From the NCBI GenBank assembly GCA_973895155.1, contig OZ316895.1:5211181-5275180 (forward strand): a DNA stretch of 64,000 nucleotides, read 5' to 3'. Made by a program: the position numbers and the translations under genes. Below the pieces are notes generated by a model. The model was not told the DNA's origin. It did not search any database and saw only the letters and a program-made list of their open reading frames with translations. The stretch is from Marsupella aquatica. Lineage: Eukaryota; Plantae; Marchantiophyta. This document shows positions 619 through 64,000 of this stretch, piece after piece. The first letter of the stretch is position 1; each line of letters opens with the position of its first letter.

Positions 619-793
619 GTAACTATGAACCCGAATCCTGCCGTTGGTAAGACGACAAAACGTCATTGATGGAGTGCGTCCAAATCCATAACGACTCTAT
701 AATGAGAATGGAACGTTTACTTCTCGTACTCGAATCTCATGATAAACATATTTCATTTCGCGTGGGGCAAATGCATATCCCTCTTTTGAATCC

Positions 794-3700
794 ATGGCTC
801 AAAATATCGTTGTCATGAGGAAGGACACTCTGGATGTAATCACAATTCCCGTTCTCAAATCATCTGAATCAAAGCGTGTTTCAGAGGAATATTTGGGAGT
901 GAGATTTGATGTCACCAAGGAGTCTATTTTAGCGATCTCGTTAGTGTCGGTTTGTTTGGGGGAGACTCCAGTTTTCTATGATGTTGTTCATGGTCTAAGA
1001 TATTGGACTCTGGAGGCTCAGAAAGAATATGAGGTTTTTGTTTTGAGAGATTCTGGGGCCTCCTATACTCGTCCTCCCACAGTGGCTGAACTCGATGTCA
1101 TCGAACTCTCGGAAAGTTCTGGAGATGATAAGCAAGCGACAATTACTCTCGGAGAGAAGATTCCAGTTTACCCATCCGAGGTTAAAAAGGAGTCTAATGC
1201 GGATCGAGAAATGATTGTGCCTTTGACTGTGTACCGACAGAGTGCAATGGATACAATCTTGAAATCCAAAGGTCATAGTGAATTGTCTCGGTTTATAAGG
1301 GGGAGTGATTTTGTTCATCACGTAGTGCCTAGTCTTCCCACATCTTACAATGGGAATGTGGTTTTTGAGTTACCCCCGGTAGACTGTGTGAACGCAAAAG
1401 GTGAACGTTTGAAAGATATGGATCGTGGTAAGGATTGTTATTATTGGACTCAGATTGTGAAAACGTCTTCAAATGTTCTTCCGAAGAAAATGTGGGATTT
1501 CGGGAAAGTCCAGTGTACGGGATCGCTGCAGTGTCGAAATAATGCTTGTCCGTGGTGGAAAGACAACAAGTTTCGAAATAATGAGATGTGGGCAAGAACC
1601 CCAAAACTTTCGGGCCCATTCAGAGTTGGGGAATTGATCTCCGAAGGTGGAGTTGTTTGTCACCATTGCTCCGAACCTCCGATGTGCGTTGAGGCCTGCC
1701 CTGCTCTAATGTTCTACATGTATCCATCTGCAAAAGTTGACGTTAAGTCTTTGGCCCACATGTCGCGACTAGCTGTTCATATGGGATTTCACAATCATCC
1801 CAGTGAACGGGTCTTTTCGAGGGAGGCAGAAAACGTTGCAAAGTCTCATCTGGAGAAGGGATTCACTGCAAACCCGATGGCATCCCCAGTAGGGATTAAA
1901 AATTCTGCGATTGAGACACTGACGAATACATTTTGTGAGGCCTCTGTTGAAGAAATCTCTCTTGAAGAAGAGAAGGAAATTTGGGAGTCCCTGATGGTCA
2001 TCGCATCTCCTCAGAAGTTTGCATCCGTGTTAAGGAGTGTCCGTCAAGATCAGAAGGGGAAAGGGGAACTGGAATTTCTTATGAGGATGCAAAAGTGTAT
2101 CCGACTGCCTTTTCTTCATAGGTTCTTGCTCCCTGGTCAAGGCTGTCGGGACGAGAGTGCTCATATCTTTAAAATGACCGTAAAAGGTGACGGTAGTGGT
2201 CTGGACCTACTCCAAAGAATGAAACCTGGTGGGTCGTTAGAGGGTTCATGGGTAAGTTTTGACGTGATGCATCGAAGCACGGCAGATTGGCTTACTTTCA
2301 GTGCCCATGTATATGATCATCATTATCGGGCACTTTGCACCATATTCACTTGTGAGCTAAAGGCCGAAGATGCAATATCTTTGGAGAGAGCCTGGCATTT
2401 GATGTTAGAGGTTGCCGATGAAAATGGTTTACAGGATGTTACAATTCGGGGATTCATGGCGGACAATGCTCAGGCTGGTTGGAATGCTGTTTGAAACGTG
2501 TTCTTTGACGGTGTACCCGACCCAGAGCGAGAAAGATCATATGCCTTTCATTTTTTCCAATCTTTTCATCGTCATTCCCGAGAAGGTGTAAAAGATGGAA
2601 AGCACGGAGAGCACAAGGAGATGTGGGATCGTCTTCGGAACGCGCCAACTTTCTTGAAAGCATATCGAATCTCTAGGGAAATCGATGACTAGTGGAGGTC
2701 TGGCAATTGTCACTCAGGCAAACTTCGGATGCTGCAAGGGTGGCTGTCTTGGTGGGTTGTCCGATGGAGACAATGGGGGAACTTCATAAGACTGGTGAGT
2801 TATACACTTCTCTAGGATGCATGTTCCCATTAATAGCGCTCGGTGCTAGTGAATCATGTGTGAGATAGAAGGGTTCCTTATCTGCAATAGTAGCGCCGAG
2901 CGCTAATAATCCATTTGGACTATGAGTGATGTAAGGACTACCTTTATTCTGTGTTAAACGGTTCTTTACATGGAAATATCATCATCAGTTTATTAGCGTC
3001 TGGCGCTACTGTTATTTCCATTGTGTTGCCACTTTTGTGTGCAATTTCTTACATGTACTAAACCCTTGCGTGCAACGTTTCAGAGCAAGAGTGCCGAAGA
3101 GGCTGGGATGATTCCTAATTGTACTGGTTCGGAATCTAGGCATGCTAGAATGAAAGCATGGCAACAAAAAAAAAGGTTGGTCTATTTGAAGGATGTAAAA
3201 CGGACCAAAATAGAGCGGTTGCTCAAATTGCTGCTTATACTGCATACAAAAGGGGATTGAGCAGAGGAACTGGCCCAACTATTTTTGAGCTTGCCTTCAG
3301 ATCGGCGGACCTGGCGGGGTCACCGCGTCTCTTTGAGGAAGCCACCAATCTCCTCCTGTCGAACGCTGCTGAGTTTGATTTGGAAAGAAGCGTTCCATTG
3401 AATGGTGATGTTATAACTCGATCGGTGAAACAAAAAGGACATGCAATTGGGAACGTCTCGGCAGAAGACTCGCACAGACATGATACCATCCTTGTTACTT
3501 CACCAAATACAAAAGGTTTGAAAAGGAGAAACCTGCATTCCACTGATTTCGAGAAAATGCCTTCTACGCCTTCAGCCGGTGGAATTGATGCGGTCCATAA
3601 TTTGTCAGAAAGCGATGCTTCTGACGAAGTTGTGGTCATTGACACACCTACACGTCGAGCAACGAGATCCTCTGTCCCACCAGTGACGCCTGCAAGACCT

Positions 3701-4609
3701 GTCGAGACTGCATATTGTCATTCAGTTTCCCCAATGGAAAGTGAAGTACCTCTCGGTGCCTGGCAGTTGCGTCGGACCTCAAAATGGGGTGCGGGTCCAG
3801 TGTGTAACGGAACCCTTGGACGGGGAGGTAGTCGTGATGAATGTCGAAATCGAGTAAAGAAGGTTGGTCTTCCGAATCCAGATGGTGTTGTTGCAATTTC
3901 CGTGAGAGGATGCAGAATGTTCAGGGGGCAACCTTATAACGATCAGATATGGTTTTGCCCCAACAACCACTGTCACTGAAGCACAACAAGGAGAGGAGTC
4001 TCGAACATTCCCAATGTTCCTTCACATCTCCCAATTGCTAGAGGGACCAATCTTTCTGGAGCAGAGATTCAATTTTTGAAAGAACAAGGACTTATTCTCT
4101 CCGAAGGCCGTGGAGATGAAATCGAAGCACCGTTGCCTTCTGCGTTACGGATTGATGTCAATCTTTTCCCGGAGAGGATCAACCTAACTGACCCATCTGT
4201 GAGGTGCACTTCAAGGAACGGGAAGAAATGCTTGCAAAGAGTGCATCTTACCCAAACGCATTTGAAGAGAATTGAAGCCTCTGAAAAAGAAGTGATGAGT
4301 GTCATTGGAGAGAGAGTGATCACGAGTGGAAATGCGTCGGGGAAACAGTTTTGTATCCGGACCCATGAACATGAGAGATCAGTCGCCTCTTATTGGGTTC
4401 AGATCTGTTGTTTTCCATGTTGCTCTTGCGAGGATTTCTACCGTCGACATACTTATCGGAAGCCTTACATGCCTTGCAAACATGTGTATTGGGTGTTCAA
4501 GAATGTGTTCAAACTGGATGTGCTCGAATCGACATTATGTAGCCAGCCAATTCTAATGTTGGGAGAAGTCCGTTACATACTTGATAGCCAGTTGGGAACG
4601 AGAACGTAG
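794..4609 (+). pseudogene. MULE transposase pseudogene: GCM/WRKY-like zinc finger + DDE core + C-terminal SWIM zinc finger
   Basis: D1 WVSFDVMH (GAC 2261), D2 FMADNAQAGWNAV (GAC 2462), MULE CxxH decayed to YAFH (TAT 2540), E in PNCTGSESRH (GAA 3132). SWIM-type CSCEDF..PCKH at ~4420-4485. N-terminal CTGSLQCxNxxC..CHHC..C..HMGFHNHP at ~1510-1800. Phase-0 intron GTGAGT 2795 to CAG 3083. In-frame stops at 2492, 2690 and 3977, and one frameshift near 3155-3175. Confidence 0.85.
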
Positions 4610-4899
4610 ATTGTTGCTTGATTGTTGAACAGCTACAACTGTAGTTTGTCTTTTCTAACGGGCAGAAGTGTGAGTTCTTCAAGTGTTGTTTTTTTGTATA
4701 ATACTATACTAGCGCCGGGCGCTAGTATTGTATGACTTTGTTTCGACTTCATATTTTGTGGCAATATATTGGAGTCCTTGTGTGAAATCGTCGAGAAATT
4801 TCCTCTAATGTTGTACAATGGTGGGACCCACCATAATATTGTCCACACAATTATTGCATATATGGACGCTACATACCGTGACGAGAAGAAACTAAAATG

Positions 4900-5051
4900 C
4901 ATACAAGAAAAAAAATACTCATACAAGAAAACAGAAACTCATACAAGAAAACAGAAACTCGTACGAGTAAATAGATATGCTCATACGAGGAACTTGTTTA
5001 CTCGTACGAGACAAAATTTTGCTTGTACGAGGCAAAATTGGCTCGTATGAG
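4900..5051. repeat. Subterminal repeat array (CTCGTACGAG palindrome and transition variants)
   Basis: ctcgtacgag at 4958 and 5001, ctcatacgag at 4980, cttgtacgag at 5022, ctcgtatgag at 5042, plus ctcatacaagaaaacagaaa twice. Confidence 0.85.
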
Positions 5052-5091
5052 AATATCTATTTACTATTTGCTAGCACGGTGGTTATACCCC

Positions 5092-6095
5092 TCCTGGTCG
5101 TCTCCCCAAATCCACTCCTGATCCAACTTAGTGAGTATAGTTAAAGGTTTAGCAAGCTGGCTAAATCCTTTAACATACCTCCTATAGTAGCTCGCCAATC
5201 CCAAGAATGCACGAACTCTGCTCACATCAGTAGGACAAGGAATCTGTGTAATGGCCTCCACCTTAGTTTGTTGCACACCCAATCCTCCTAGGTAGATAGT
5301 GTGGCCCAAATACTCAATCTTCTCTTGAAAGAACTTACACTTGCCGGGATGGAGCTTCAATCCATGTTCCCTCAATCTCTCAAACACAATCTGCAAATGT
5401 CTCTGATGTTCTTCCACAATAGAAGAATAAACCAAAATATCATCAATATAACATCTGACAAAATCCAAACCTGCAAGGATTCGATCCATGACTCTCTGGA
5501 ACTCAGCTGGTGCATTCTTCAACCCAAATGGTAAGAACAACCACTGGTACAAATGATCTTTGCCATAAGAATCAATCCCCCAAAATGCTGTCTTGGACCT
5601 GTTAGAATGCCTAATTGGTAACTGATGGTACCCCGCCCTGAGGTCCAACGAACTAAAAATCCTTGCATGCCCCACTGCATCAAAGATCTCCTCCGGTGTG
5701 GGCATGGCATATCGATCAGATTTTGTCTGACAATTAATAGGCCGGTAATCACTGCACATTCGCCTATCCGTGTAATTGCCATGCACATCCTTCTTGGCTG
5801 GCATCACTGTGGCAGATGCATACTCTCCGTATGAAATCTCCACCAAACTAGCTTCCAACAAATCCTGAGTTCTACTCCGGATCAATGCCCTCTCCATATC
5901 ACTATATCGATATGGTCGTCGAAAGATTGGCGCATCACTAGCCAATTCAATCTGAATACCAGGGCCCTTCAATGTTCCCAAATCCTTCATGCTAAATGCA
6001 AAACAATTCCAATAACTCTTCAAGAATTGATACATTCGACGTCTCTCATCCCCTGTCAACTTAGGGCCAATTTGTGGCTCCCAACTCTCCATCAA
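5092..6095 (-). other. Reverse transcriptase domain (gypsy type); ends before RNase H
   Basis: YIDD at 5439-5450 with the conserved RT blocks around it; similarity stops at EWIWGDDQE. Confidence 0.95.
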
Positions 6096-6339
6096 AGTTG
6101 TGATGTCTTCCTTTGGGGTTGAAGAGATAGTCGGTGGTTGCTATTTAGCAACAATTTGAGCAGTCCCAACCTGCTCAACAATCTGTCCTGTCTTGGCCAA
6201 TCCCGCCATAGGTCCATGGACTATCTACTCGCCCCCAGTTGTGGTCGCTACTGTCTCAGTAGACCGCAAGCTCACCAACGGACGATCAGTAACACCAAAA
6301 GAGCGCATCCGCAATTGTTCAGCTAATCCCAAACTGATA

Positions 6340-7290
6340 ATCCAAGTCAAGCAATTCAAATCCATGGCTTGACCAAGGACCTGGCGGCGTGAACTCTCTG
6401 ACATAGAAGCAACTGCAGTAGTGCTTGTCAAAAATCCCATAGCACGCTCTTTTTCATCAGAAGTAGGTTCCACTAACTGCTGTAGAGCTGTATCCCATAC
6501 AAGTCCAGGCCCACCTGCTCTGAATGCATATGAAGCAGAATGGCTCACAAAAGTGGGTAATGCACAACGTGGGCGACCAACTACATTGACCACTGCCAAT
6601 GGAGGTCTGTCAGGCTGGGTCACACCTTGTGCACGACGCCCTGGATCCAAAATATCATCCACCACCAAGGCTGTTGAGCAAGGAATGCTATCAAATGCTC
6701 GCTTCAACACCTCACAAGGTAACAAATTAGTCCACCACAAGCGTGGACGATGTGCACGAGAACCCACACGTGCAGCATCCAATAACACAACAGGTCCAAT
6801 CCAAGACTTAACCTGATGAACGCTGGCAACAAGTCGATGATGATCATCACCCAATAATGGCACATTCTCCAAAATGTAGGCAGGGGAATGTGTCTGATGC
6901 AACTGAAGATGACGCAATACCCATAATATCTCCCAAAACAATACAGATCTTGGATCATGAAGTCCATGTCCAACTCCAGCTCTAGATTGACCCTGACATG
7001 GCCAACCCGCAATCACCAAATCAATGGGGCCAACGCGATCCAAATGATCCGCCCCCACCAATGAAATATCAGTTGGCAATGCATGTTGATAACCACAAAC
7101 GGCATCCACTGGCAATAATTGTGGGTAACGTTCAACCAACAATGCCACATGACGTAATGAGACTCTACGTGCTGTCTCATAAGTCTCCACATACAAATAA
7201 CGACGCACAGGAATGTCGGCTTGAAGAACGGTAGCCAATCCAGTGCTAATTTCACCAAATAAATCCAACAAACAAATACCCTCATGTGGA
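6340..7290 (-). other. C5 cytosine DNA methyltransferase domain (DNMT3-like, non-permuted)
   Basis: Motif I LDLFGEISTG (~7240-7270), motif II YVE, motif IV IDLVIAGWPCQGQSRAG (PCQ 6993-7001), motif VI YILENV (6861-6869), motif VIII AHRPRLWWTNL (RPR 6741-6749), motifs IX/X EKERAMGF..SRRQVLGQAMD. Confidence 0.93.
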
Positions 7291-7699
7291 TATTGCCATG
7301 CAATAGGAGTAGTATCCAGTGGTGAAAGAGTCACTGGTCCATTTGCAGTTGATTGCTCTGCTCCTGATTGCGGTGTAAAAACATGACGCCATGCATCATG
7401 TATCAATCGGGCCGCACTTTGTGGCAAGGCCTGTCCAGGACCCCATACTGGTGTCATAACACTATCAATGGGCAATCCATGCATGAAGTGTTCCTCATGT
7501 GCCTCCTCCACCGTAGGGACATCTGTTGCATGTGCGTTACCCTCAATCAAATCATCAGCCCCAGTAATCAAACTACTGAATGTTGCCAAAGATAATGGTG
7601 CAGATTTGGGGCCTCCAACAGGTCCACTAAATCGCACGGGCAATTGACTCAATCGAGCATCTCTAGATTGCCAATCAGGTCGGTACGACACTAATTCAT

Positions 7700-8010
7700 T
7701 CCAAAAATCAAGAACAAATTCCATAGGATAGAGAACTGTACATCCCACCAAGACATCATATGACTCAGTCTTAGTCAAAATAGCTCGAGCCTGGATCCGT
7801 GAGTTATCCTTTGAATGATCCTCCTGAATCCTAAGTTCAAGTGCTCGTCGAGTGATATGTTGTGTGGGTGTAGGTCCTCCCAATGAAGTCTGAATGGGAA
7901 AGGGACACTCCTCCAAATCATCAGGACGCAATCCCAATCCTCTTATCGCAGACTTACCCAACATCAAGGGCTGAGCACCAGTATCCAGTAACACTCGCTC
8001 TGGCTGGTAT
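7700..8010 (-). other. Retroviral-type aspartic protease domain
   Basis: VLLDTGAQ (DTG at 7977-7985) and downstream YDVLVGCTVL (hydrophobic-Gly motif). Confidence 0.85.
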
Positions 8011-8879
8011 ATTGTTCCAGAAGGCCCAACTAATCGGAAGATACCACTCTGATTATCCAATGATATGACGCTAGGTTTAAACCTAGTCCTCTCATAAGCA
8101 GGGCGCGTTGGTAAATCTATCAACCTTGCCGTTGCTGCATGCCATGTTTCATTACTGGCAATAGGTGGATTCAACTCCACTACTTCAGAATTGGGCGTTG
8201 CTTCTGCACGTGAAGCAACAGCTGGAGTGTCCTCACATAATGTGGCCGCCAATCTGAACACCTCTGTTGGACTAACTCCCAATGTCAACATATCCGTAGC
8301 TGAAAATAATGGCGGGCGTACTATAGTAGTGGCCGCCCCCAACAGGGTACTTGTCATCCCTGTCACAACATCACTTGAATCCGCCAACTTACCCCCACCT
8401 GGGTTAGTCCGAACCGGATTCATAGAGGTAGTTTGAACTGCCTCTAACAATGTAAACAATTGGGGAAGCTTCGTTTGACGACGAATATCCCCTCTCTGAG
8501 GATCCAACTCTACCACTACTCCTCGTGGCTCAAGGGCTTTAACTGCTCCTCGAGTCAAAGCTGCTGATGCATCAACATGCGCAATGCCACACATAAATCC
8601 CATGGTGGCAAGATCTCCATCAGCTCCATAAGAGGTTGAAGCTCCATAGGATGTAGAAGCCCCATCACTAGCAGTAGGTCTAACTTGAGAACTAGCCATT
8701 GCAGCTAGTTGTTGCTCCAATTTAGCAATCTTTGCATCCTTAGGATCTGTGGTAACGGTAGGAGCAACATCACCTCCCTGTCTTCTTGCATGTGGCATGC
8801 CTCGACCACGTCCACCACCTCTACCTCCTCTTCCCTGATCATATGCACGTGGTCCTCCCCGTCGTAGTTCAGGATGAAG

Positions 8880-10112
8880 TACAAAACACCTATCTTTGGT
8901 GTGTCCAGAAACTCCACAATGATCACACTGTCGTTGATCAGGTGTAGATGCCCCTCCTTGCCCCCTATTATCTGGGCAATATCTTTGTGCATGATCCCCA
9001 CCACAAGTCCAACATCCTGATTGTTGTCCAGCATAAGAAGGCACAGGTCTCTGACTAGTAGATTCCAGTGTTGTAGGCTTCTCTCTCTGGCTCTTACGTA
9101 CAGTAGGTTGCGGTGTGGTCGTCAATGCAACCTTTGGTGCTTCCTTGGCAAATCCAGAAGTCACCACCTTCTCATTCACTATATTGAGCTCAATGCGCTC
9201 AGCAAGTGCAAAAACTATAGCCAATGTGGGATCTGAATCCCTCAATAGAGTGGCATCTCTCACTCTACGACGCAACTCCCTATCCAAAATTGCATACCAA
9301 AATTGGACCGCTTGGGCCTCTATCACTCCTTGTGTGACCGTAATCAATCTTCGCATACGAGTGTATGCCTCACGTAGGCTCTCTCCAGTCTTGCGCTGGA
9401 ATTCCTGAAGACCCTTCAACTTATCGGTTCTCACACCCTGGTAGTTCTGCTTCAATACTTCAAAGAACTTCATCACAGGGTTAAATGTTGGCGCAGCTCC
9501 ACTCCCAACCACAATCACACCGGTAGGAGTAGCGGTGGATGTTGATGGAGTGCCACTCTGGCTAGTGCTGCTAGAAGAAGCCGCAGCTGTAGCAATGGGT
9601 TGGGCAACCGCACTTGTGCCATAAGTGATGGACACATAGTTTGGTGACCAATGCTGTCTCCATGCCTCAATATCCACTAAATGAGCCTTTCAAAACTCAT
9701 GGTAGTCATCCATGGGTGGCCCCTCCAAATGTTGAAACAACCCTTTCCAAGCCATGAAAGGTGTGAACAATGTGGCATTACGCATTGTCTGCATATCACA
9801 CCACGTATCAAACTCTTGGATGACATCATCCAAATCAATCGTGCCAACTGCACCAGAGTATCTCCTCGGTCCTTTCGTGGCCCCATACATCTCTTCCATA
9901 TCCCACAACAATGGCACAATCACTTGATGTCGAGGAGAACTGGCTACTAAGTTCTCGTCAGAATCACTATCCGAAACCCCACTTGTAACCACTAACAATG
10001 TCGTCGGCCAAAATTGCACTCCACTCCGAGTGAAACCAGACCGTCGTCCCTCGGGTAGCCCCGTATCACCAGAGGACTCCGTGATGACCAATTTTCCCTA
10101 AATGGTCACCAT
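8880..10112 (-). other. Gag domain with two zinc knuckles
   Basis: Retrotransposon gag-like segment LQEFQRKTGESLREAYTRMRRL; knuckles CWTCGGDHAQRYC (~8977-9015) and CDHCGVSGHTKDRC (~8886-8928), followed by an RG-rich tract. Confidence 0.85.
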
Positions 10113-10301
10113 CAACTCACCACTATCAATAATCAATCGATTGGTGAAACGGTGTTCCGCGGATACCCATCACTCAATCGCGGAACGGTTCCGTCAATTT
10201 GCTTGGAGATCGCGATTTTGGCGGAATTTTTGCGGAACTCCGCAAATCGCAACTCCAAACGAGCAACTCAACAACTCAAAGCTCCGCATCCACTCGAGCT
10301 T

Positions 10302-10312
10302 TCTCAACACCA
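10302..10312 (-). promoter_or_regulatory. Primer binding site TGGTGTTGAGA (non-iMet; possibly tRNA-Leu)
   Basis: Lies 3 nt inside the LTR end and begins with TGG (complement of tRNA CCA). It differs from the iMet PBS TGGTATCAGAGC. tRNA identity is tentative. Confidence 0.6.
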
Positions 10313-10315
10313 ACT

Positions 10316-10722
10316 TGTAACGGATCGAGATACCAGCGATCCGTTCAACAACAAAATGAAGCTGATCAGAATTCGAAGCTGATCTTTCAATGTAATCTTC
10401 TTCAATAGTGCAAATCGAACAACGATCAGAGCTAATCTAACAACGATCCCATCCGACGCGATCACACATGTATGTCAAGCCCAACGCACCTTGTGCTTCA
10501 AGGAATCCACGTTACATGCACACAACCTGGTCAGCCACACCATAGCCACCAAGCTCATGCTCAAAGGCTCAACATTGAAAGATGAGGCCTTTGAGCCAAC
10601 ACAAGGGGATAACTATCCCTCACACCAACTCAAACTAAACATAGTGCTCATGTAGCACACATACAAAACCTCTATACCTAGATAGTACGATATACTTTAC
10701 TACCACTCTAAATGGTGTGACA
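10316..10722 (-). repeat. 5' LTR (~407 bp) of the gypsy element
   Basis: Minus strand starts TGTCAC (10722) and ends GTTACA (10316), i.e. TG..CA ends with a short inverted terminus. It is followed after 3 nt by a TGG-initiated PBS. The partner LTR is not in the window, so the outer boundary is inferred. Confidence 0.7.
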
Positions 10723-23583: not shown

Positions 23584-25093
23584 GGCCATGTTAAATGGCC
23601 ACACTTCAAAAGTTCTGACTTCTGACCGCATTCTTTTCTCGGTTATCTCTTAATGTCATGAGGTGGCAACGTTCCACTGAGAGGTCTTTCTCAGTACTGT
23701 GAACATGATAGACAGGTGTAGAGAAGTGAAGCCCATTTTTTTTGTAGAATTAGGGCAAGTGTGTTGCGCTTGCATCCAGCAAACATGAATAGCAACCCTG
23801 CGCATGTGTAACAATTGGATGGTCTCGCATTCTATGAGACTGCTTTTATTCGAACATCACAAATTCTCCCTTGATATCAGATATGATTCTTGTTGAAGTG
23901 AACAACTCGTCATTGCATGTGGGTAGATCCTTTTTGTGGTTGTCCTGTTTTTAACAAGCTCAAATTAATGGAGAGTTTAAAGTTTGAAGTGTTTTGGTGT
24001 TTAGGGTTTAGCTCCTGATCTGTTATCTCCAACCAGACAGTGATTGCTAAAGCGCCCATTGGTTTTTACTCTTGACCACCTTGAAATGGCAAGACGTGCA
24101 CAGCTAAGTCGTCTTGGTTTGCTGGCATAACCACCCAACGACTCTTCTACTCGCCAGGATCGAACTCCTATGGATGGGTATTTAAGTGCATCACAATCTG
24201 AATTGTTAGCAATCCTCAGAGCAACACACTGCCCTCGTGTTGCAGCCCCGAGGACTGGGCTTCCCCCCCAAAAGTGTCGTGGCATAGGCATCTAACTGGG
24301 TTGGAGAGTCCAGGCCTACCCTCCATGTGCACGTAGCCTTTGTGTGTTGTCTCCTAAAGTCAGGTAGAAATACTTGAACGGCATTCTGTGATCCTGTGGG
24401 GAAGAGATTGGAGATGGCCAACCGAGAAAATGAGGAGCTTCAATGCGTGCGCTGTTATGGCAAAAATTGATGATTGAACTATATTGCGTTTCAAATTTTC
24501 GCACCTTAAATTGTGGAAGGGAGCTGAAAAGAGAAAGAAAAGTAGTTGCCAAAAATGAGGAAATGAAACAATCTAAGAAAATTTGGCTGTGTAAACGACT
24601 GCCCGATTAGACTACAAGCCAAGCACAAATTCATAATTGCTAGCTCAAGAGTTTTCTCGATGGACGTAGCAACACAAGCCAAGTCAAATTGTCGCAAGAA
24701 ATTGTAAACGGCCACCACTGTGCAATGCTTGTGACAACCCGCCAGGAATCTCTGCCCATCGTCTAGCACGCCAGGTTACAAACTTGGCACAACTTTGCTT
24801 CCCGGGCAATGAAGGGTGTCGCTAAGCTTACGTTCACTACTAACTGGCCAAATTCAGCTTGTAAGTTATGAAAAGTTGGCCTTCCTTCAAGAGCAATGTC
24901 CGTAGGCCTAGTGACACAAACGGAGGGAGAAGAGATCCACTAGTGTTGATATCCAGGTAGAAACTTGGGCTTGGGATCTGAGCATTTTCCAGTCGTATGT
25001 GCAGGAGCTGAATTCGGATGAAGAGAGAGAGATGGGGACAAGGCAGAGACAAAGAGGGAGAAGAGTTGGAGTAAAGCAGTGAGAAATCTAGAT

Positions 25094-27024
25094 ATGAATC
25101 CTGTGGGATCTTCTGAGCAGGATCTAGGGCCTGCAGAGGGAGAGCCGGTCACAAGAGTTGTCATGGACCGAATAGAAACGGCGTTTGAAGCTTTGTCCCA
25201 AGAGGTTCGAGAGCTGTCGCTGGGTACAACCGGGGAGGTGGAGCGAGTCAAGGGGCCGCTGTCACCGGTAGAATTTTTGAGGAATTGCGTGTTGCCTGGC
25301 CGGCCCTGCATCATCACGGGTGCTCTGGACCACTGGCCGGCTCTTCAGAAGTGGTCCAATGACTATTTATGCTCGGTGCTGAAACAGCAGAGCGTGAGTG
25401 TGCATTTCACCCCGGACGGTCGTGCTGACGCCCTTGTTGATCCGTTGCACATGCTCGCCACTTACAGTTGCCCCATTATTGCTTCCTCCTCTGAGGCCCT
25501 CTCAAGTGCACTTGAGAAGGAGACCCACAATGGAAGTAATTCTGGTCATGAAGTAAAGCTTGTAGATGGTACGTCAGACCCCACAAGATTGCTTTTTGTG
25601 AGGGCCTACGTCGAGAAATTGCCGTTTCCCGAGGCTTTGAAGCTGATACTGAATGGGTCAGGAGGTGGAGGAGAGATGAAGGGAGGAGTGGCATATGCAC
25701 AAGAGCAGAATGGTTGTTTTCTGTCGGAGTATGGGGAGTTGACGGGAGACGCTGAGGTGCACATACCGTGGGCCACAGAGGCTTTAGGGTGCATGCCCGA
25801 GGCTGTCAATTTGTGGATCGGAAATCAAGATGCGGTGACGTCTTTTCACAAGGATCACTATGAGAATCTTTACGCCGTTGTGGCCGGAGCTAAGCATTTT
25901 ACTCTGCTGCCTCCGGTTGATGTGCACCGAATGTACATTAACGCTTATCCTTCTGCTCAGTACGTCCGACTGAAGGTCTGCTTTGTCCGTGTTGTTATTC
26001 CCTGACTCGTCTTCCCCATTCTGTCTTCAACACTGCCATGTGAAGAGTGTTCTAGAGAGGGTTTACGGTTTAATGATTGCACTTTCGTAGGATCTGCTTT
26101 GGAAGTAGCAGACAGTGGACATAATGCCAGATCTTGGCAAATGATACCCAGCTGTTGTTTTGTTATCACGATAAAAGACGTTTGTGCAAGACCATGCTGC
26201 AGATGGAAGTATGTGATGTCACTCTTCTCGAGTGTATAGCTACATTTATCTTCAGGTTTTGGACTTAAAATTTGAACAGAGACTTGGATGGTAGTGAGGG
26301 GAGGCACTGTCGGAGTTGCAAGAACCTTTCAGATGGATTGACGGTAGCCAGATTGCCTGTGAGCAGTAGGGTCTGCCATTGTTCAAGCTGTGGAAGAGGT
26401 CATTTGGCTGTAGCTCAATTTTGATTGATATGTCATCGCTAACAAAACCTTCATCCGAGTGTTTCCAGAATAGCAGGAAGTTTGGCATTGTTCTGGATGA
26501 ACAACCTTCCATGGTCCCATGGGTGAGTGTGGATCCCTACCCGGAGGATGATGAAGGAACAGAGACCTTATTTCCGAGATACTTCGATGGATCTCAACCA
26601 TTTACCTGCACCGTGCAAGCTGGAGAGATTTTGTATCTGTAAGTGCATTTTGTTGCAGCTTCTTGGCTTGAAAAGTGTCTTATTCCGATTTTCGTAAGAC
26701 TTTCAACCTGTTGGAGACGAATATAAATTGCCCTGCCCTGGCTAGCAGACCCAGCATGTGGTTTCATCATGTTCGCCAATCTCCAGACTCAGAAGGTCGA
26801 ACCATTGCTCTAAATTTCTGTAAGTATTTCTATTCTGAGGCCTCCTGCAGGCATCGTGAGGAGCTGCCAAACAAAGTTGAAAACATACAGTTGTGAACAC
26901 ATGTTCCATAATTATGGTGTCATCTTTCTTTCCCTATATCGCCTTGTGGATTTTTGATGCAGGGTATGATATGCAGTTTGATATTAAATACGCTTACTTC
27001 AACATGATGCAGGCTCTGCTTTGA
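25094..27024 (+). CDS. JmjC-domain 2-oxoglutarate oxygenase, JMJD7/JMJ32-like, 4 exons
   Basis: PEAVNLWIG..TSFHKDHYENLYAVVAGAKHFTLLPP (HxD), then VPWVSVDP..GEILYL|PSMWFHHVRQ..TIALNFW|YDMQFDIKYAYFN; TGA at 27022-27024. Confidence 0.92.
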
Positions 27025-34494: not shown

Positions 34495-37400
34495 ATGTCA
34501 CGGCGCACAATGTCCGAGAAGAGACATGCCGCACGAAGGCGTGCAATAAACACCTATGCCGAGTCACTAAGTCCGTTATGTCAAGGATGGGCCTCAGCCC
34601 CATTGTATCTCCAAGAATGGAGAGAAGTCTGCCAAAAGACAATCCAAGGCATGAAGGTGTGCAGGATGTGCGGACTAGTTTGATATAGAAACACTCCGAG
34701 GATCGACAAGACATTCACCACCGTACCAAAGGTGAACATGACGCCGTACGGCATATGCAACACATTTGTCAACCAGTACATTGAGAACCAAGATGGAACA
34801 ATCAACGTGTGCGTGACTTGCGTGCGAAACCCCGCCCGTATCCAGATAAACTCCTTCATATCTCTGCAATATGCGATCGACATCCTAGCCGCGAAGCCGT
34901 TGTACATGCAATTGCTCTCGCTAATCGACTGTCGACTAGGCATCATACAAAAGTACAATGGCTTCCACTCTGGCTTCTACAAAAAGGAAAGCCTCCTTGA
35001 CAACCCGCTCATATCCTGGAATCTCGACACGCTAGAGTGCAATAATCGAGAGGAGATCATGCGACAGATATACAAGGTCATGGAACTCAATTTGACGACC
35101 AACCAACTTTTCAAAAGATACGTTTCATTGGTCGAACTACCAGACCCGTAACTGGGACTGTGCATCCTAAGTTCCGACGGAGTAGAGAACATCATCAAAG
35201 ACAAGAGGGCAAAGGGAATAACCACGAGATCCATGAACTTTGACCCATTCGACCCCGACCTGCACATCCTCCAAGATGTGCATTACAGGATCCCGACTTC
35301 ACACAAGCGCAAGTACCAGGTCTTTCATTCCGGCACCGTGTACGACCACAAGAGAATGTGCTCCGAAGAGAGCGTCAACACCGACGCGGAAGGACTGTCG
35401 AACGATCCACATTTGACATTGGAAAATGCAATGTTTCCGTTCTTATTCGTCCACTCGAGGGGTTTCCATCGAGGACAACTCAGCTTGATCGACTACATGA
35501 AACGGAGGACACAATAGTTGTTCAGCATATTCACTTTGTACAAGCCGTACATGCTTATCATGTACCAATTGCGACAGGCCAGCCAAGTAGCAAGCATGAG
35601 CAGGACTATAGCAATCGACAAGGAATACATGCAGATCAAGGAGAAATGCCCCCACTTTAGCGAGAAGGAAATATACAAAATGCTGATAAAAAAGACAATC
35701 ACGCAGGCCATTCCTGGGAGCCCGGCGTGGCACGGAAGACACCTCGACGACCTCAAGTGCATGGTAAGAAAATGGGGACTGCCCCATTTCTTCCTCACGC
35801 TCACTTGCGATGAGCTCAGCGACACCCGTTGACCTGAGATCGCCGACCTCGAGAACATTGTGAAGAGGATGAATCCGACCTTCTCATGGAAAGATTGTCT
35901 TGTCGAATGCGCCGTGCTCTTCCATGAACGAATCCAACGTTTTTTCAAGGATTACATTTTGTCAAAACGCGCCATAATCGGAAATGTGATCCACTACGTC
36001 ATCAGGTACGAGTTGCAGGGCCGCGGATCACTCCATGCCCACACGATGCTATGGGTCAAGGATTGCCATGTCGATCGAGTCACGAACGAAATTGCCGCAT
36101 TCATCCCTGGAAAATTTGACTCGACATCCGGCAGATTCGAAGAGCCGAATGGACTCAAAGAATAGACCCTGTATCGCAACGTGGTGACGAAACAACTTCA
36201 CTACTGCAAGGAGGGCTTGTGCTTGCAAAGGCACTCCCAAACCGGCCTCAAGTACTGCAAGTTGGGTTTCCCCCAAGAAACTCATCTCGACAAAGATGCG
36301 GCCATCGACCCCGCCACGGGGAAATGGAGGTACCACAGGCCAAGCGACCACCACCGAAATGTCGTGCCATACCACCCGCTCGTGTTGCTGTTGTGGGGCG
36401 CGCACATGAACCTGCAACGCATCACAAACGCGGCCTGGTCATTCTATTTGCTCAAATACGCGATCAAATGCGAGCCCCTGGGATCACTCCAGCTCAATGC
36501 GAACGATGCGCGCACTCTAGGACTCGAGGACCTGTCTGAAGTCCAACTCAAGCTTGTCAGCGGAGCCGTCCTGTCTCGGAGCGTGTGCGCCACAAAGGCG
36601 GCCTTGACATGCCTCAAAATCAGCATCATCCATCGCTCGGAGACAGTGGCGTTCATGGACTCATCGCCTCCGGAACTAAGGTCCGCCATCTACCGTAAGT
36701 CCTCGGGGATATGTTTGCATCCCACCAGACTCTACGCACAGAGGCCCGAGGACATGTTTGCAATGTCCTTCTACGACTACTTCACCAACCACGAGGTCCT
36801 CACCAATAAGAAAAGCACCACCAAAGACTACGTCGGCAGGGATTTGCAAGGCAATTTCGTGTATCGGATGGATCGGCTCGTGCGGTTTTCGGAGTATCAT
36901 CCAGTATACAAGATGAACGGCTTCTTCTACAACTACCTCCTGAAGGTCATGAGATTCCGTGCAGAAGGCGAGATTCTTCTCAGGCCCATAAGCGAGACGT
37001 GGAGCTACTTGCACGAGTGCATACACCGCAAGTTGATAACCAGCGTCGACGACGTGCACAAGTTGGTGCTTCAGTATTGTGCATCGCACCTCTACTCCAC
37101 CCACCACACATCCCACCTGCTGTAGGAGCTGAACGAAAAGCTTCCCCACCAAATTTTCAACGACGCGGCCACATTCCAAGCGGTCCCCACTGTCGCCGTA
37201 GAGAAACCGATCGGCGCGGTGCTCAACGAAAAAACTCTCCCGACCATCAACTTGACTCCGGACCAAATCAGAGTGTTTGAGGCACTCAAGGATGTCAAGA
37301 GCGGTCTGTTCATGATCGATGGAAATCCAGGATCCGGCAAGACTTTCTTCATCTCTTTCATGAACAAATACTGGACATATAAAGGGAGGAAGGTGAAGAT

Positions 37401-38619
37401 GTGTGCCACCACGGGCGCGGCTGCCATAAACCTTAACGCCGACGCGGTGACAATGCATTCCTTGTTCAGCATTCCAATACACGGAGAGCTCAGGCCTCTG
37501 CACATCATCAGTCCCCAATACCACATCTTGAGGAACAATGACGTGTTCGTCATAGACGAGGCGAGCATGCTGACACCCAAACTGTTGCGTTGCGTCTCCA
37601 CAAGACTACACGAGACACTCCAAGATGAGGACCGCTCGTCCGACCCATTCCAAAATAAGACGGTCATCCTGGTCGGAGACATGTACCAATTGCCTCCGGT
37701 TTGCACCCACCACACCAACGACATATGCAAGTCGTGCCACCTCTTGTCCTCGCCATATTTTGAGACCATGCGGAAATTTCACCTCAGCACTGTGCTCAGA
37801 CAGAGCACAGACCGGAAGTTCATGGAGTTCCTTAACAACATCCGCACAGGCCTCCCTACCCAAGAATCAATCGATGAGTGCCTGGGACGATGTTACGTGT
37901 CCAAACAAGAAGCCCATGATTTCATCGACGCCTCGACGACCGTGATATGCACACATAGAGAAACAGTCGACAACTACAATGAACGGGCATTACGGAGATA
38001 TTTTCCACGCCAAGAGATCGTGCCCGTCCCAATACTCACCAATGCCCCTTCAGACGAATCCACCCGGCCTTGGATACAAGATCCCTCCTTCCACACACTG
38101 ACGAACGTTGCAATCAGATGCAAGGTGATTCTCACACACAACATCGACCTCTCCAAGCAGGCTGCAAACGGCAATGGAGGAATCGTGGAGAAAATCACTA
38201 CAGAAGTCGAAGGCAAAATGTCAATTTTTGTGAGAATGTCTTCCAACCACTGCCTCGTAAAGATCAACCGCACGGTTCACGAGAACAAGTTCATCTCGGG
38301 ACAGCAAACCCATCGGAAATCCACTTTCCCTCTCATGCTCGGATACGCCATAACAGGTCACAAAAGCCAAGGTTGCACACTAGCGGGCAAGGTCGTGCTA
38401 GAAATAAACAGTGCATTCACACCGGGACTGGTGTACGTTATGTTGAGTAGGGTCACAAATAGAGCATCCATGCGCATTGTTGGAGATCTTACGCCACCGG
38501 ACTTCAAAGTGTTCCACTTACCAATTCGTCGTGTTCAACAAGCAGATGTCGACCACCAAAGGCAACAAGGCAGCGAAGGCATCACAACAACAATGAGAAA
38601 CAATGACAGGCGCAAATAG
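34495..38619 (+). pseudogene. Helitron-like RepHel (HUH endonuclease + PIF1 helicase), one intronless frame with 6 premature stops
   Basis: Rep motif 1 FFLTLTC, motif 2 RYELQGRGSLHAH, motif 3 YLLKYAIK. Helicase motifs GNPGSGKT, IDEASM, GDMYQLPPV, VLRQ, YAITGHKSQG, YVMLSR. All pieces are in one frame, with stops at 34681, 35149, 35515, 35830, 36163 and 37123. Confidence 0.93.
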
Positions 38620-51986: not shown

Positions 51987-54044
51987 CTACTTGCAATCTC
52001 TCCAGACATATAGCTGTCGAGTTAATGACATTGTGGGAAGGGTGGCGGAATGCGGTTGGGGCATCATCATCGATGACGACACTCTTGACGCAAGAACATC
52101 CCAAGTTAAGTCTGTCACGTCGAGATTGGGAGCATTGCTGAGCAGATTCTCATCAATATCTGCCCACATTGTACTTCCTTCGAAGTTGGCGGCACTACTT
52201 AAAGTGTCACACTCGAGCTCGCTGGATCTGCAGGGAGAGAGCGCTGATCCTGACTCCCCTGCAGAAACCAGCATTGGAGGACTGTTGTCCATGAAGTCGG
52301 GACAATCCCGCCGCCTCATGAACTCCACCTCTGCTGCTGCCACGCTATCGCGGTAACTTACCTCGGCTGCTTCTCCTCCACTTGCTGCTGACATTCCCGC
52401 AAGATCACTCGACCCGCTCACCATATTATTCTGCGAACGGGCTCGAGTCGCACCTAGAAAACTGGCCGAAGTATCTGTGACATGTTGCTGTTGCACAGAG
52501 GTTTCTACACCACTGCTTGACATGTCCTGTGCACAACCTGTGTCGCCTTCACCACTGAGACGATCGCTGTTTACTGCTGTTGCTGTCGTAACTCCTGATA
52601 CTCCTACTGATGCTGCTGACACCGACGGCCCTACTGCTGATGCTGCCGATGAAGCTCGCTGCTGTTGCGCTATGGATGATGAAAACTCTCGATGATCTCG
52701 ATTCGGATTACTGTTGTGAAGAGCAATAGCTTGAAGTTTTGCGTCGAGAGTAGAAGGCAGCGGCCTGATCTGATCAGGACCTCCTCCTCTCCACCCGTCA
52801 GTAGATCCTCCCGGATAGAATCTCACAGGATGCTGGATCTGGGGGAAATTAAGCCTAGCATACTCACCCCGCAGTTTGTAAGCCGCCTGATCGTAGGCAA
52901 ACGCGGCCTCCTCTGCCGTGTCGAAAGTGCCGAGCCAGAGACGGGTCCGATTGCGAGGGAGACGAATCTCCGCCACCCACTTTCCCCAGTGTCTCTGCCT
53001 GACTCCTCGGTACAGCTTCGTCTGCCTCGGACCAGCGCGCTTATCATTTTTATGGAATTTCATACTCTGCCCTCTCGGGCTCAAATTGACTGACTCGCTC
53101 CACGAGCTGTGCTGCCTGAACTGTGGCTGAGCTGCAGAGAAATTCTGCCTCGACTGCTGCACAACTTGAGCCTGCATCTGAAGGAGATGCGAAGCCTGCA
53201 ATTGCTGGAGTGCAAACAACTGTTGATGGTGAGCACCTCCATCATGAAGATCGCAGGAGGAAGGATGTAACAGCTGCTGCTCCACCTTTCCGACGGCCTG
53301 GACACGTCCTAAGAAACCATGATCTACATCCACCTCCTGCAACACGTATGGTCGAGATTCACCGGACGTACTGAACAGATCGGAGCTCGAGAAAAGCCCA
53401 GCTTGCCCGTCCGGCACTGGAGAGCTACACCAACTCGCGGGTAGAGAACCCGCAGTTCCGGAGTCATGGAACTTTCCGCAGGTACCCATATTCGATTGAA
53501 GTACGTTGGTATACACCGGATGTGCTGCATTGGGACCAACTCCTGCAGCAACAGGCAACAACGGTGGTTGTATTGACAGAAGATGCGTTGCAAGGCTTAG
53601 ATGCAAGTCGCTGCTGCTTGTACCGGCTCCAGTAAGCTGGCTCAGCATCGACGTCTCGGTCATTGGTTGCCCTCCAGTTGCCAGCCTCTCCGACAGATCT
53701 CTCGAAGGTTCGTCCGCACTTCCCCATCCTGATTCTCCGTAGGACGACGAATTCGAGCTCGAGTTCGATTCTGGGCTTTCCGGCAGATTCAATCTCGCCA
53801 GTGCTGACGCATTGAGGTCTGGAAAAGGCTCAGCCAGCTTCAGATAGCCTGCCTTACTTGAAGGAAAGGACAACTCGGACATACAAATATTGCCTTCATC
53901 AAACTGCAATTTGTTGCTCTTAGGTCCAGTAACGAAGAAATCCGTATGTCGAAGCGGCTCGATTCCAACTGCTACTGCTGCCATGTGGATGTTCTTGAAG
54001 TCTTCAACGTTGTACTTATCTTCCATCAACTGCTTCTCTCCCAT
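51987..54044 (-). CDS. AP2/ERF transcription factor, group I / DREB A-6 (RAP2.4/WIND-like), single coding exon, 685 aa
   Basis: AP2 domain [59 protein letters not shown] (~52840-53015). Group-I accessory motifs [21 protein letters not shown] and a C-terminal P..D..WDVL. Confidence 0.95.
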
Positions 54045-55072
54045 CGAAATTTACCTGCAGCGGATCGCGCCCCAAACGGTTCTCGAGTTGCAAGAACGGA
54101 AGGCGAGCTCGTAACAGAATCGCCGTGTACAACTCAGCGGCACCGAACGGAGGTGAGCGAACTCAGAATCAAAAGGGATGGAAGGGATTAGACTGGATGA
54201 AGGATCGAGACACTTACTAGAAAAAAAAAAATTAGAAACACAAACCCCCTTTTCGAAAACTGAAGGTTGATAAAAGACTTCAGCTTTGGAAGCAACAGAG
54301 TTGAACAGTTCTGTGTACACAGATCTCGACAACTTCGTGCTGGACAAGGCACAAGGACCAAAATTGCGCGCTTGGTTGAGGGGGGCCTAAAGGACCCTCA
54401 CTTTCGGAGCAAACTAAGGACTCGGACGAAGGCACGAGACTGCGGGAACTCGGTACACAAACCCACTAATACACAAATCACAGTCCAGTCTTCTGTCTAT
54501 TCTCTAAGACCAAACTGTGAAGTACAACTCACACAGAGGGAATAGGAAGACAGTCTGAGAGAAAGGAAAACGAAAACGTAGAGATCGACGAACACAGGAA
54601 CGCGAGAGACAATGCAGCTGAGAAAATCCCACACAAGGCCGTGACAGCTATCGTGCAAAGAGAAGAAAGGCAGCTAAAACGGTTTGGGAGGGAGGGAAAA
54701 GGAGATCAAATTGATTTGAGTTGCTCGCCTTCAAATGCTGCGCCGTTCCTGAACTGAGTGTGGCACGTTGATTGTCGTCATCGAAATCATGTCTCGCGAA
54801 TCGTTCATGAGCTCATCAGTTTGGCTTGCGACCCGCTCGGTGCAGATTGAGAACCGAGAGAGGAAATCAGATGATCCCGCCGAAGATGGAAACCAGCAGA
54901 TCGAACCTCTCCAGATCCCTTGTCAGAGATGAAGTTAAACCTTCGAAGACTACACTCGATCTCCACTCTCAGAGCTTCGATCCAGGTTGCTTCTTAAGGT
55001 AATTGGTGCTTGCAAACTCGACTCAGATCGATGTCAAGCTGCACGAAAGCACACGAGATGTACACGCACACG

Positions 55073-62066: not shown

Positions 62067-64000
62067 CACTAGTACATTTTATCGCCCTTTTCCGACAATG
62101 AAAGTATCGGAACCCTTCGGCAACTTGCAACCAGATTTTTGGACCTTCCGATTACCACAACATCAGAACATGCCATTTTCTGCACATCGGATATAGACCA
62201 TCGGACAAGTATCGGAACTACCGATATTACCTTCATCGGACTATCCGTAATTTTAAATATCGGATATTTTACTATCCGATGCCGGAAGTGTCGGACCACT
62301 ACTTTGTCGCCTGTTCTGTTTAATTTGTGTCCAATTATTGTCCGTTTGTTAAGACATCGAAATATCCGATATTATTAGTTTTGCAAGTTCCGATGCGGTA
62401 AGATTCGGAAGATCCGAATGTTCTGGAATGGGGAAGTCCAATACAAAGTGCATCGGAAGGTCATGGTTTTGGTTGGATGGAGTGGGATGATTTAAGTATC
62501 GGAATGGCATCGGAAAGAGTGCTTTGGGAAGCGGGGATGCCACGCTTATTAGCATATTTAGTGGGTTAGGGTTAGGTGTAGGGGTGTTTTGGAGGCATTT
62601 TGGAGCTTATTGAAAAAACCATGCAACATAGATCTAATTCGAACCCATGCATGGCCAAAAAGGGTACTCAAGCCCCTAAAATGAATATATACATATAGAC
62701 CCCAATATGTACAAGTGTGATCCACTCGGATCAAATAAGAAATAGCAGCGTGCCCCATATGGTCTACACTTTGTGCCCTAACACACTAGGCTTCTACTCT
62801 GCATATGCTGGTCAACTATCTGACTTGCTACCAGCTCAAAATGGAGCATGTCGTCCCTTCCTCTTTTTGGAACGAGTCCGTGGAGGTGGGGGTGGAGAAG
62901 CCTCGGTGAATGTGGTTTGGTCCATATTGGCTTGGTCCAGGTCGTCTGTCCCAAGTGTAGAGGCAACATGAGGAAGTGGACCAACCCCACCACCACCACC
63001 ATGGGAAGCCCCTGAGCCATGAGAGGGCACACCCTCTTCGCTACCTCGGCAAGTATGAAAGGAAGCTGCGGGACCCCACCCACTGGTCCCATCAGCAGTA
63101 GAACGTCGTGACTCACCACCACCACCACCACTCCCTCCTGACTGGCTAGGGGCACCATGACTAGCTGCTGGAGGACCTGAGTGGTGAGAGACCCCACCAC
63201 CACCGCCTCCACTCCCTCCAGACGTGCCAGAGGCACGTCCACCACCCCCAATGCTGCTTGCATGCTGAGAGACACCACCACCACTGCCTGCACTCCCTCC
63301 AGACTGGCCAGGGGCATGTCGACCACCCCCAGTGCTGCCTGCATGCTGAGAGACACCACCACCACTACCTGCACTCCCTCCAGACTGGCCAGGGGCATGT
63401 CGACCACCCCTAGTGCTGCCTCCATGGTGAGAGACACCACCAACACCGCCTGCACTCCCTCCAGACTGGCCAAGGGCATGTCGACCACTCCCAATGCTGC
63501 CTCCGTGGTGAGAGACTCCACCACCACCGCCTGCACTCCCTCTAGACTGGCCGCCTCCAGTGCGACCAGAGTGCCGAGACCCTCCACCGCCGGCTGCACT
63601 CCCTCCAACCTGGCCACCCCTAGTGCCGCCAGAGTGGCCAGAGCCTCCAGAGCCACTCCCAACTACGCCTAACTGCTGAGAGCCTCTAGAACACCCTTCC
63701 CCGTGGGGCTCTAATCGGCGAGACCCACCAACAGCATGTCGTGCAACAACATGTTGCGGGCCCTGAGTGTCAGCTCTACCACCAACCCCTGATTGGCGTC
63801 GGCCACTAGAACCAACCCCTATGGCTCTCGACTGGTGTGCGCTAGGGGCCCGACTAGCACCACCTCTGCTGGCCCTACTTCGTGATGCTGGAACACCATG
63901 ATCCTCACCCCGTCGAGTCGAGTGGCGAGGACCACTAACACCGTCCCTAACTGCTCCAGACCGGCGAGATGTGGGTGCGGTCACAATTGCCTCCTCTGGG
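62067..64000 (-). mobile_element. CACTA (En/Spm) transposon terminus, continuing beyond the window
   Basis: Begins CACTAGTACA at 62067, exactly where the MULE coding sequence breaks. Dense TCCGA/TCGGA subterminal repeats in both orientations at 62090-62520. Confidence 0.8.
62836..63984 (-). CDS. Gly/Ser-rich 3' portion of a CACTA-internal ORF with 26-aa repeats and a basic NLS-like end
   Basis: RHA(L/P)GQSGGSAGSGGGVSxHxxSxGGG repeats from a 78-bp DNA unit (~63190-63560); C-terminus PPPPRTRSKKRKGRHAPF. The 5' part is probably outside the window. Confidence 0.5.
   Translation of the reverse strand: MTAPTSRRSGAVRDGVSGPRHSTRRGEDHGVPASRSRASRGGASRAPSAHQSRAIGVGSSGRRQSGVGGRADTQGPQHVVARHAVGGSRRLEPHGEGCSRGSQQLGVVGSGSGGSGHSGGTRGGQVGGSAAGGGGSRHSGRTGGGQSRGSAGGGGGVSHHGGSIGSGRHALGQSGGSAGGVGGVSHHGGSTRGGRHAPGQSGGSAGSGGGVSQHAGSTGGGRHAPGQSGGSAGSGGGVSQHASSIGGGGRASGTSGGSGGGGGGVSHHSGPPAASHGAPSQSGGSGGGGGESRRSTADGTSGWGPAASFHTCRGSEEGVPSHGSGASHGGGGGVGPLPHVASTLGTDDLDQANMDQTTFTEASPPPPPRTRSKKRKGRHAPF

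Follow-up and report, generated by a model that had tools for sequence, protein, structure and literature searches.

The retrotransposon copy and its coding domains

The window examined here is a stretch of 64,000 nucleotides from Marsupella aquatica (GenBank contig OZ316895.1, positions 5,211,181 to 5,275,180 of the forward strand), and at 5092 to 10722 it carries a copy of a Ty3/gypsy long terminal repeat (LTR) retrotransposon that encodes a C5 cytosine methyltransferase (MTase). An intronless minus-strand frame (10097 to 5064) was found to specify gag, an aspartic protease (PR), the MTase and a reverse transcriptase (RT) in succession, as a first-pass annotation of this DNA had described. 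All features of the element given below lie on the minus strand. Gag (8820-9899) likely starts at 9897-9899, in agreement with the start of open reading frame (ORF) 1 in Marchantia, and motif reading placed two zinc knuckles within it, at 8976-9014 (C-x2-C-x3-H-x4-C spacing) and 8886-8927 (canonical spacing). The protease (7650-8069) includes LLDTGA at 7974-7991, and the MTase domain (6315-7289) has its motifs in canonical order: I at 7239-7268, IV with PCQ at 6990-7022, VI with ENV at 6861-6875, VIII at 6732-6755, and IX and X at 6432-6455 and 6363-6389. ORF2 (5092-6140) contains the RT with YIDD at 5439-5450 and is lost before RNase H (RH), whereas its relatives run on into RH, integrase (IN) and a PHD finger. 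When the window frame was scanned with Pfam, as the annotation had proposed, DNA_methylase (E 2.1e-9) and RVT_1 (E 2.3e-33) were recovered, Asp_protease_2 fell below its cut-off (E 0.005) and zf-CCHC was unmatched; Retrotrans_gag matched weakly in relatives (E 0.005-0.008).

The window frame is interrupted by three stops, two of which are defects of this copy. A premature TGA at 9690-9692 lies in gag at a position that is open in relatives, and a premature TAG at 6225-6227 lies in the tail of ORF1, where the closest relative (P0003) is open and ends at the next stop, the TAG at 6141-6143. RNase H, integrase and the entire 3' end are absent, and other copies extend past 5091, as seen from loose ends there in runs X3 and X4. 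Depth over the MTase was as high as over gag and RT, at 100 to 1000 times the level of the flank in all four runs from two studies, although summed depth does not equal copy number and one of the four runs may be the window's own source. The window copy is a dead, 3'-truncated member of a high-copy Ty3/gypsy family.

The methyltransferase is DNMT3-like and under constraint

We next asked what kind of enzyme the domain resembles. Sequence matches in the PDB were to DNMT3A/B/C in 29 of 31 cases, the remaining two being HaeIII. An AlphaFold model built from 47 sequences (predicted local distance difference test score 92.8) was compared with known structures (VIA), and ranks 1 to 37 were all DNMT3 chains, the best with Z 28.7, a root-mean-square deviation of 2.6 and 273 aligned residues; the best bacterial structure was a CpG MTase at Z 24.5, with HhaI at Z 24.1. 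The top ranks of Foldseek were likewise DNMT3, and the match of the model to DNMT3 chains is colinear over residues 1-326. Taken together, the sequence matches and the predicted fold identify a DNMT3-like, unpermuted domain in a gypsy element, as had been supposed at first pass.

Motifs I, IV, VI, VIII, IX and X and the catalytic Cys that characterize a C5-MTase are present. All 122 aligned domains keep the catalytic Cys, the Glu within ENV and, in motif VIII, the first Arg; they were selected by an MTase profile that itself favours conserved catalytic residues. Motif I of the window copy reads LDLFGEI, with Glu at a position that is Gly in 112 of the 122 domains, and at position 7252 almost all depth in the four runs carries a different letter.

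The ratio of non-synonymous to synonymous substitution rates (dN/dS) for the MTase ranged from 0.10 to 0.29 in comparisons between subfamilies (values came from 11 pairs, most of them with dS near saturation), compared to 0.05-0.10 for RT. The sole unsaturated pair, L025 and L026, gave 0.13 for the MTase. Decayed paralogues (L008 and L005) gave 0.70 for the MTase and 0.60 for RT, as expected after insertion. These ratios show purifying selection on the MTase, which the first-pass annotation had set as a condition for its reading. Midpoint-rooted FastTree trees of RT (59 rows) and of the MTase (122 rows) recovered the same bryophyte-type subfamilies. In the RT tree, whose rows do not include a Tcn1 reference, the RTs of the window family stand apart from seed-plant gypsy RTs. 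In the MTase tree, which is in effect unrooted and holds element domains only, the Klebsormidium nitens and bryophyte domains both fall among the element domains.

A conserved stop separates the methyltransferase from reverse transcriptase

The third stop of the window frame, UAG at 6141-6143, was found to differ in kind from the other two. It is followed directly by CAA CCA (stop and context at 6135-6143) and preceded by two adenosines, and thus agrees with the CARYYA leaky-stop motif of tobamoviruses. The closest relative (P0003, 85% identical in the MTase) terminates exactly at this position, all full relatives in the protein alignment terminate shortly past the MTase, and the proteins most similar in RT are standalone, with the layout RT-RH-IN(-PHD). 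To place these observations across the family, we compared 35 loci, consisting of the window and the 34 of 57 metagenome loci that have an alignable RT start (the other 23 end, are deleted or match in part). An in-frame stop 11-19 codons ahead of the RT reference point was detected in 32 of the 35, the three loci without it being distant (34% RT identity). CARYY follows the stop in 30 of the 35 loci, compared to a background of 0.75% of 21,008 stop triplets; the full CARYYA is present in eight (the window and seven others), and two further stops among the 32 resemble decayed versions of CARYY. The second codon after the stop varies between P, L and S yet retains YY, which points to constraint on the RNA. 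In L025, both frames are intact, with 1369 codons, TAG CAG TTA, and 1047 codons of RT-RH-IN-PHD. Loose ends at 6156 in runs X2 and X4 retain the stop and its context.

By these comparisons, the stop at 6141-6143 is the conserved end of ORF1 and not damage. The first-pass annotation had placed the MTase inside a gag-pol polyprotein; because the conserved stop parts Gag-PR-DNMT3 from RT, the MTase instead sits in the Gag frame. From its letters the stop is likely to be leaky, and synthesis of RT-RH-IN-PHD would then likely need readthrough. A stem-loop 3' of the stop was weak in all five loci folded (z -0.7 to -2.1). Readthrough at CARYYA occurs in some plant retrotransposons; a literature search for it in retrotransposons, which left most subscription journals uncovered, found no paper.

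Split repeats and a predicted self-priming site

The 5' terminal repeat of the window copy, repeat A (about 330 bp, 10394-10722), starts with TGTCA as does A of relatives (L032, L008 and others), and its inner end is approximate. Depth drops to flank level past 10787, and pieces of other copies end at 10393-10399. One relative, L032, is complete and is the only locus with the full pattern A-coding-B-A-B, in which A is 342 bp (92% identity) and B is 113 bp (94%). Four further loci have an A...B form with 4-bp duplications, and the window keeps A only. A 4-bp target-site duplication was present in all five loci with both ends (L032, L043, L012, L023 and L017).

Directly after A lies a primer-site-like stretch (10382-10393) that pairs perfectly over 12 nt with a stretch in the middle of A (10572-10583), the latter at the predicted 5' end of the RNA. 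None of 500 shuffles reached this pairing. The same geometry with other sequences spans 17 nt in L032/L027 and 16 nt in L025, so that pairing between the post-A stretch and mid-A recurs across three subfamilies of unrelated sequence. For eight of ten A repeats tested, the pairing was matched by at most two of 500 shuffles; for the other two (L017 and L010) it was unclear. This is the geometry of Tf1, by analogy with which reverse transcription would be self-primed. A candidate tRNA-Gly primer site at 10479-10491, which would have implied an LTR of 231 bp, was dropped, as the read pieces and relatives place the end of A near 10394.

The element thus departs from a canonical Ty3/gypsy layout of two equal LTRs and a tRNA primer site in having split repeats and a self-complementary primer site, the latter judged with no tRNA library searched. 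By contrast, the Ty3/gypsy order of PR, RT, RH and IN was found, with PR followed by RT in the window and continuing into RH-IN in L025, L032, L017 and L008, the kind of relatives that the first-pass annotation had proposed to look for. In L032 (10238-10805), a purine run precedes the first B, A ends in CA ahead of the primer site, and B and A meet in a palindrome; L025 and L029 share this B/A junction. B plus A resembles the LTR that reverse transcription produces, and the inserted forms resemble circles that were opened where B joins A, a suggestion drawn from few loci. Loss of A via recombination between two B copies would account for the short A-coding-B form equally well.

Host, abundance and distribution of the family

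An AP2/ERF gene in the same window (51987-54050) shares 70% identity with Calypogeia fissa over 99% of its length, and 51% with Marchantia over about half, which marks the host as a liverwort and agrees with the land-plant origin assumed at first pass. A protein search recovered 52 relatives; models from Marchantia polymorpha are numerous among them, and Calypogeia fissa and Sphagnum fallax are also represented. The metagenome scan gave 57 loci, which were retrieved by MTase motifs, so that members without the domain cannot appear among them. The PR-MT-RT order is repeated in many independent, unrelated contigs. Together with the equal depth in all four runs, these results identify the MTase as a family-wide feature, and they contradict the one-off capture and the chimeric or contaminant origin that the first-pass annotation had named as ways to be wrong.

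Named relatives were found in Marchantia, Calypogeia, Sphagnum, Closterium and Klebsormidium. In Marchantia polymorpha, several annotated hypothetical proteins of about 1280 amino acids are open copies of ORF1 (Mp4g09160, MpVg00370, MpVg00540, Mp5g06330 and Mp5g06860). In Klebsormidium nitens GAQ93235.1, found by profile search, zf-CCHC, protease and DNMT follow one another likewise, with an MTase 37% identical over 328 amino acids, and Closterium has gag-PR-DNMT-RT within one predicted protein. Because the K. nitens and Closterium proteins share the gag-PR-DNMT order, the lineage appears to span streptophyte algae and bryophytes; its description as a land-plant lineage is too narrow.

Several observations concern the wider occurrence of the domain. 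At E 1e-30 or better, 492 clusters (50% identity) match it; in the best 150 of the 492, the commonest full layout is RT-RH-DNMT-IN-PHD (37), and one with a name is from the chlorophyte Hariotina reticulata. In a far larger group of algal-type elements, the DNMT domain is thus found at another site. A protein from the transcriptome of Coleochaete scutata (P0058) has the layout RT-RH-IN-PHD, shares 64% identity with the RT of the window copy and may be a vertical relative, a transfer or contamination. A copia-type protein of Tetraselmis (P0054) matches the MTase domain weakly (E 3.7e-6). One family member (P0246) is filed at NCBI as an uncultured cyanobacterium and is likely plant DNA in a bin. 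Viral contigs yielded just six distant phage-type MTases.

Neighbouring features in the window

A repeated element at 746-5091 abuts the truncated 3' end of the retrotransposon, with high depth at 4600-5041, and may have caused the truncation. Its long ORFs had no convincing Pfam match up to E 5; by eye their Cys/His motifs look SWIM- and Mutator-like. A contig in all four runs joins the end of this neighbour (5088) to position 8333 of the retrotransposon, with 30 letters on the short side, and the neighbour may therefore also sit in another copy of the family. Elsewhere the window contains an ORF for a PIF1-like helicase (37126-38619, E 1.4e-23), possibly of a Helitron, a Cupin_8 ORF (25022-26005) and an 81-bp tandem repeat within an open frame (63095-63643) that has no convincing Pfam match.

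Proposed expression and role of the enzyme

The interpretation that we favour, and regard as somewhat more probable than all others together, is that the window holds a dead copy of a liverwort Ty3/gypsy family in which Gag-PR-DNMT3 ends at a likely leaky UAG, and in which the MTase would be made at the level of Gag and likely methylates new cDNA. Most ribosomes would halt after the MTase and yield Gag-PR-DNMT3 in bulk, and readthrough of a few per cent would provide RT, RNase H and integrase; the enzyme is expected at Gag level because it precedes the occasionally read-through stop. It would be packaged with Gag and freed within the particle by the protease. Reverse transcription would be self-primed as in Tf1, the cDNA would be methylated before or during integration, presumably at CG by analogy with DNMT3A and SymbioDIRS-Dnmt3, and the PHD finger of integrase would read the target chromatin. 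A broader proposal, which we put forward as tentative and hold to be doubtful in its full extent, is that an old streptophyte gypsy lineage, still alive in liverworts and peat mosses, has moved a DNMT3 ahead of its recoding stop, so that every particle is loaded with enzyme at capsid level. Its elements would prime themselves, insert by cutting inside their own LTR (the circle being opened at the B/A junction, which yields A-coding-B-A-B or A-coding-B), deliver PHD-guided, pre-methylated DNA, and act within bryophyte genomes as a mobile de novo methylation source.

Several points weigh against the favoured interpretation. Activity, expression and readthrough are predictions from sequence. The 35 loci represent about five related subfamilies with duplicates, one of which supplies most rows, and are not independent; in this largest subfamily the stop is followed by CAA CCC, which matches five of the six letters, and then by ATG, an arrangement that is also compatible with reinitiation. 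Retrieval by MTase motifs cannot reveal members that lack the domain, and the domain tree contains no host DNMT3. The observed/expected ratio of CpG in the element, 0.56, is just slightly lower than the 0.66 of the rest of the window, and host silencing explains this equally well. Finally, the Klebsormidium domain was inactive in yeast, a result that its authors call inconclusive (PMC5890265).

Other explanations differ in how ORF2 is reached or in what the enzyme acts on. ORF2 could be expressed by reinitiation, from an internal start or from a shorter RNA, in which case the MTase would still be made at Gag level and would never be joined to RT and integrase. An in-frame ATG 2-5 codons past the stop in the largest subfamily (at two codons), L026 and L028, with which several predicted ORF2 proteins begin, fits this route, but the window copy, L007, L040/L041, L025, L029 and L046 have no ATG up to 13 codons from the stop and all retain CAR-YY, and reinitiation has no need of these letters; we consider it rather unlikely. 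A little less unlikely is that the bulk of the enzyme acts mostly in trans or after integration and methylates flanks, sister copies or competitors, thereby limiting copy number or reshaping the host methylome. The family is very abundant in its host, and placement in ORF1 predicts a large excess of enzyme over the one or two cDNAs of a particle; against this, the methylome of Klebsormidium is plant-like (PMC5890265).

It is very improbable that the domain has been retained without a catalytic role, to bind nucleic acid or as a structural component of the particle. The yeast result for Klebsormidium (PMC5890265) would suit such a role, but the catalytic Cys and Glu are invariant and the Gly of motif I is nearly so, an outcome that the profile used for selection favours. 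One-off capture of a host gene, an assembly chimera or contamination is hardly credible: contigs over the 10722 junction have 28 letters inside the element, under the 31-letter rule, yet the PR-MT-RT order recurs in many independent contigs as well as in genomes of named liverworts and mosses, and the window also carries a host gene (AP2) of liverwort type.

The use that a transposon makes of a silencing enzyme has been in question since 2018, one reason being that the known hosts were algae in which genetics is lacking. The open ORF1 copies of Marchantia polymorpha make activity, expression and effect on the methylome testable in a model land plant, and the position of the MTase ahead of a probably leaky stop gives a clear prediction of enzyme dose. 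In the annotation of bryophyte genomes, copies of the element can also pass for DNMT3 genes of the host.

Comparison with known systems

Elements of this general kind were reported by de Mendoza et al. 2018 (PMC5890265), who found that gypsy elements of Klebsormidium carry Dnmt3 domains without introns in their Pol ORF and saw these domains as a lineage-specific acquisition; the main text of that paper does not name Marchantia. Later papers restate the 2018 result for 'streptophytes' (PMC12344493 and bioRxiv 10.64898/2026.05.21.726589). Like KnitGypsy-Dnmt3, as described in PMC5890265, the liverwort family consists of gypsy elements whose Dnmt3-like domain lacks introns, is unpermuted and evolves under purifying selection, and it has DIRS-like split repeats of the form A-coding-B-A-B, here in L032. 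By contrast, the DNMT of KnitGypsy-Dnmt3 lies in the ORF of RT and RNase H, whereas the liverwort family has a UAG-CARYY stop and its DNMT in the Gag ORF; its hosts are land plants and not Klebsormidium, and the main text on KnitGypsy-Dnmt3 has no occurrence of PHD and names neither readthrough nor self-priming. The K. nitens protein GAQ93235.1 presumably belongs to the published KnitGypsy set. The family is most likely a land-plant branch of KnitGypsy-Dnmt3 inherited from streptophyte algae and not a land-plant invention. SymbioDIRS-Dnmt3 of Symbiodinium (PMC5890265) is likewise a Dnmt3-type domain borne by a retroelement, and methylates CG de novo in yeast, but it belongs to a DIRS element with a tyrosine recombinase, has its DNMT in the ORF of RT and is an independent capture according to that paper.

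The stop and its context correspond to UAG-CAR-YYA, the type I readthrough motif of tobamoviruses (PMC3542737 and PMC2194720), with which the window copy agrees in the stop, the six following letters and the AA before the stop. Unlike in tobamoviruses, the motif lies in a retrotransposon downstream of a protease and an MTase, reads CARYYC in the largest subfamily, and is here a predicted readthrough site. With Tf1/sushi elements and plant Tcn1 (PMC7175516 and PMC6317226), the family shares a primer site complementary to a stretch of the 5' repeat and not to a tRNA. It differs from them in having no chromodomain, a PHD finger at the end of integrase (ORF2 of L025 ends in PHD at E 2.6e-10, with no Chromo match) and split repeats. 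EpiLTRs (bioRxiv 10.64898/2026.05.21.726589) similarly combine an LTR element with a cytosine MTase and a chromatin reader, but their DNMT is sister to DNMT4 and they have DAM and a chromodomain; the preprint sets them apart from streptophyte Gypsy-DNMT3. Our literature search, which left most subscription journals uncovered and could have missed bryophyte copies listed in supplements, found no paper that describes such elements in land plants. Compared to the known kind, the family described here is new in its land-plant hosts, in the place of the MTase in the expression scheme and in the presence of open copies in a model liverwort.

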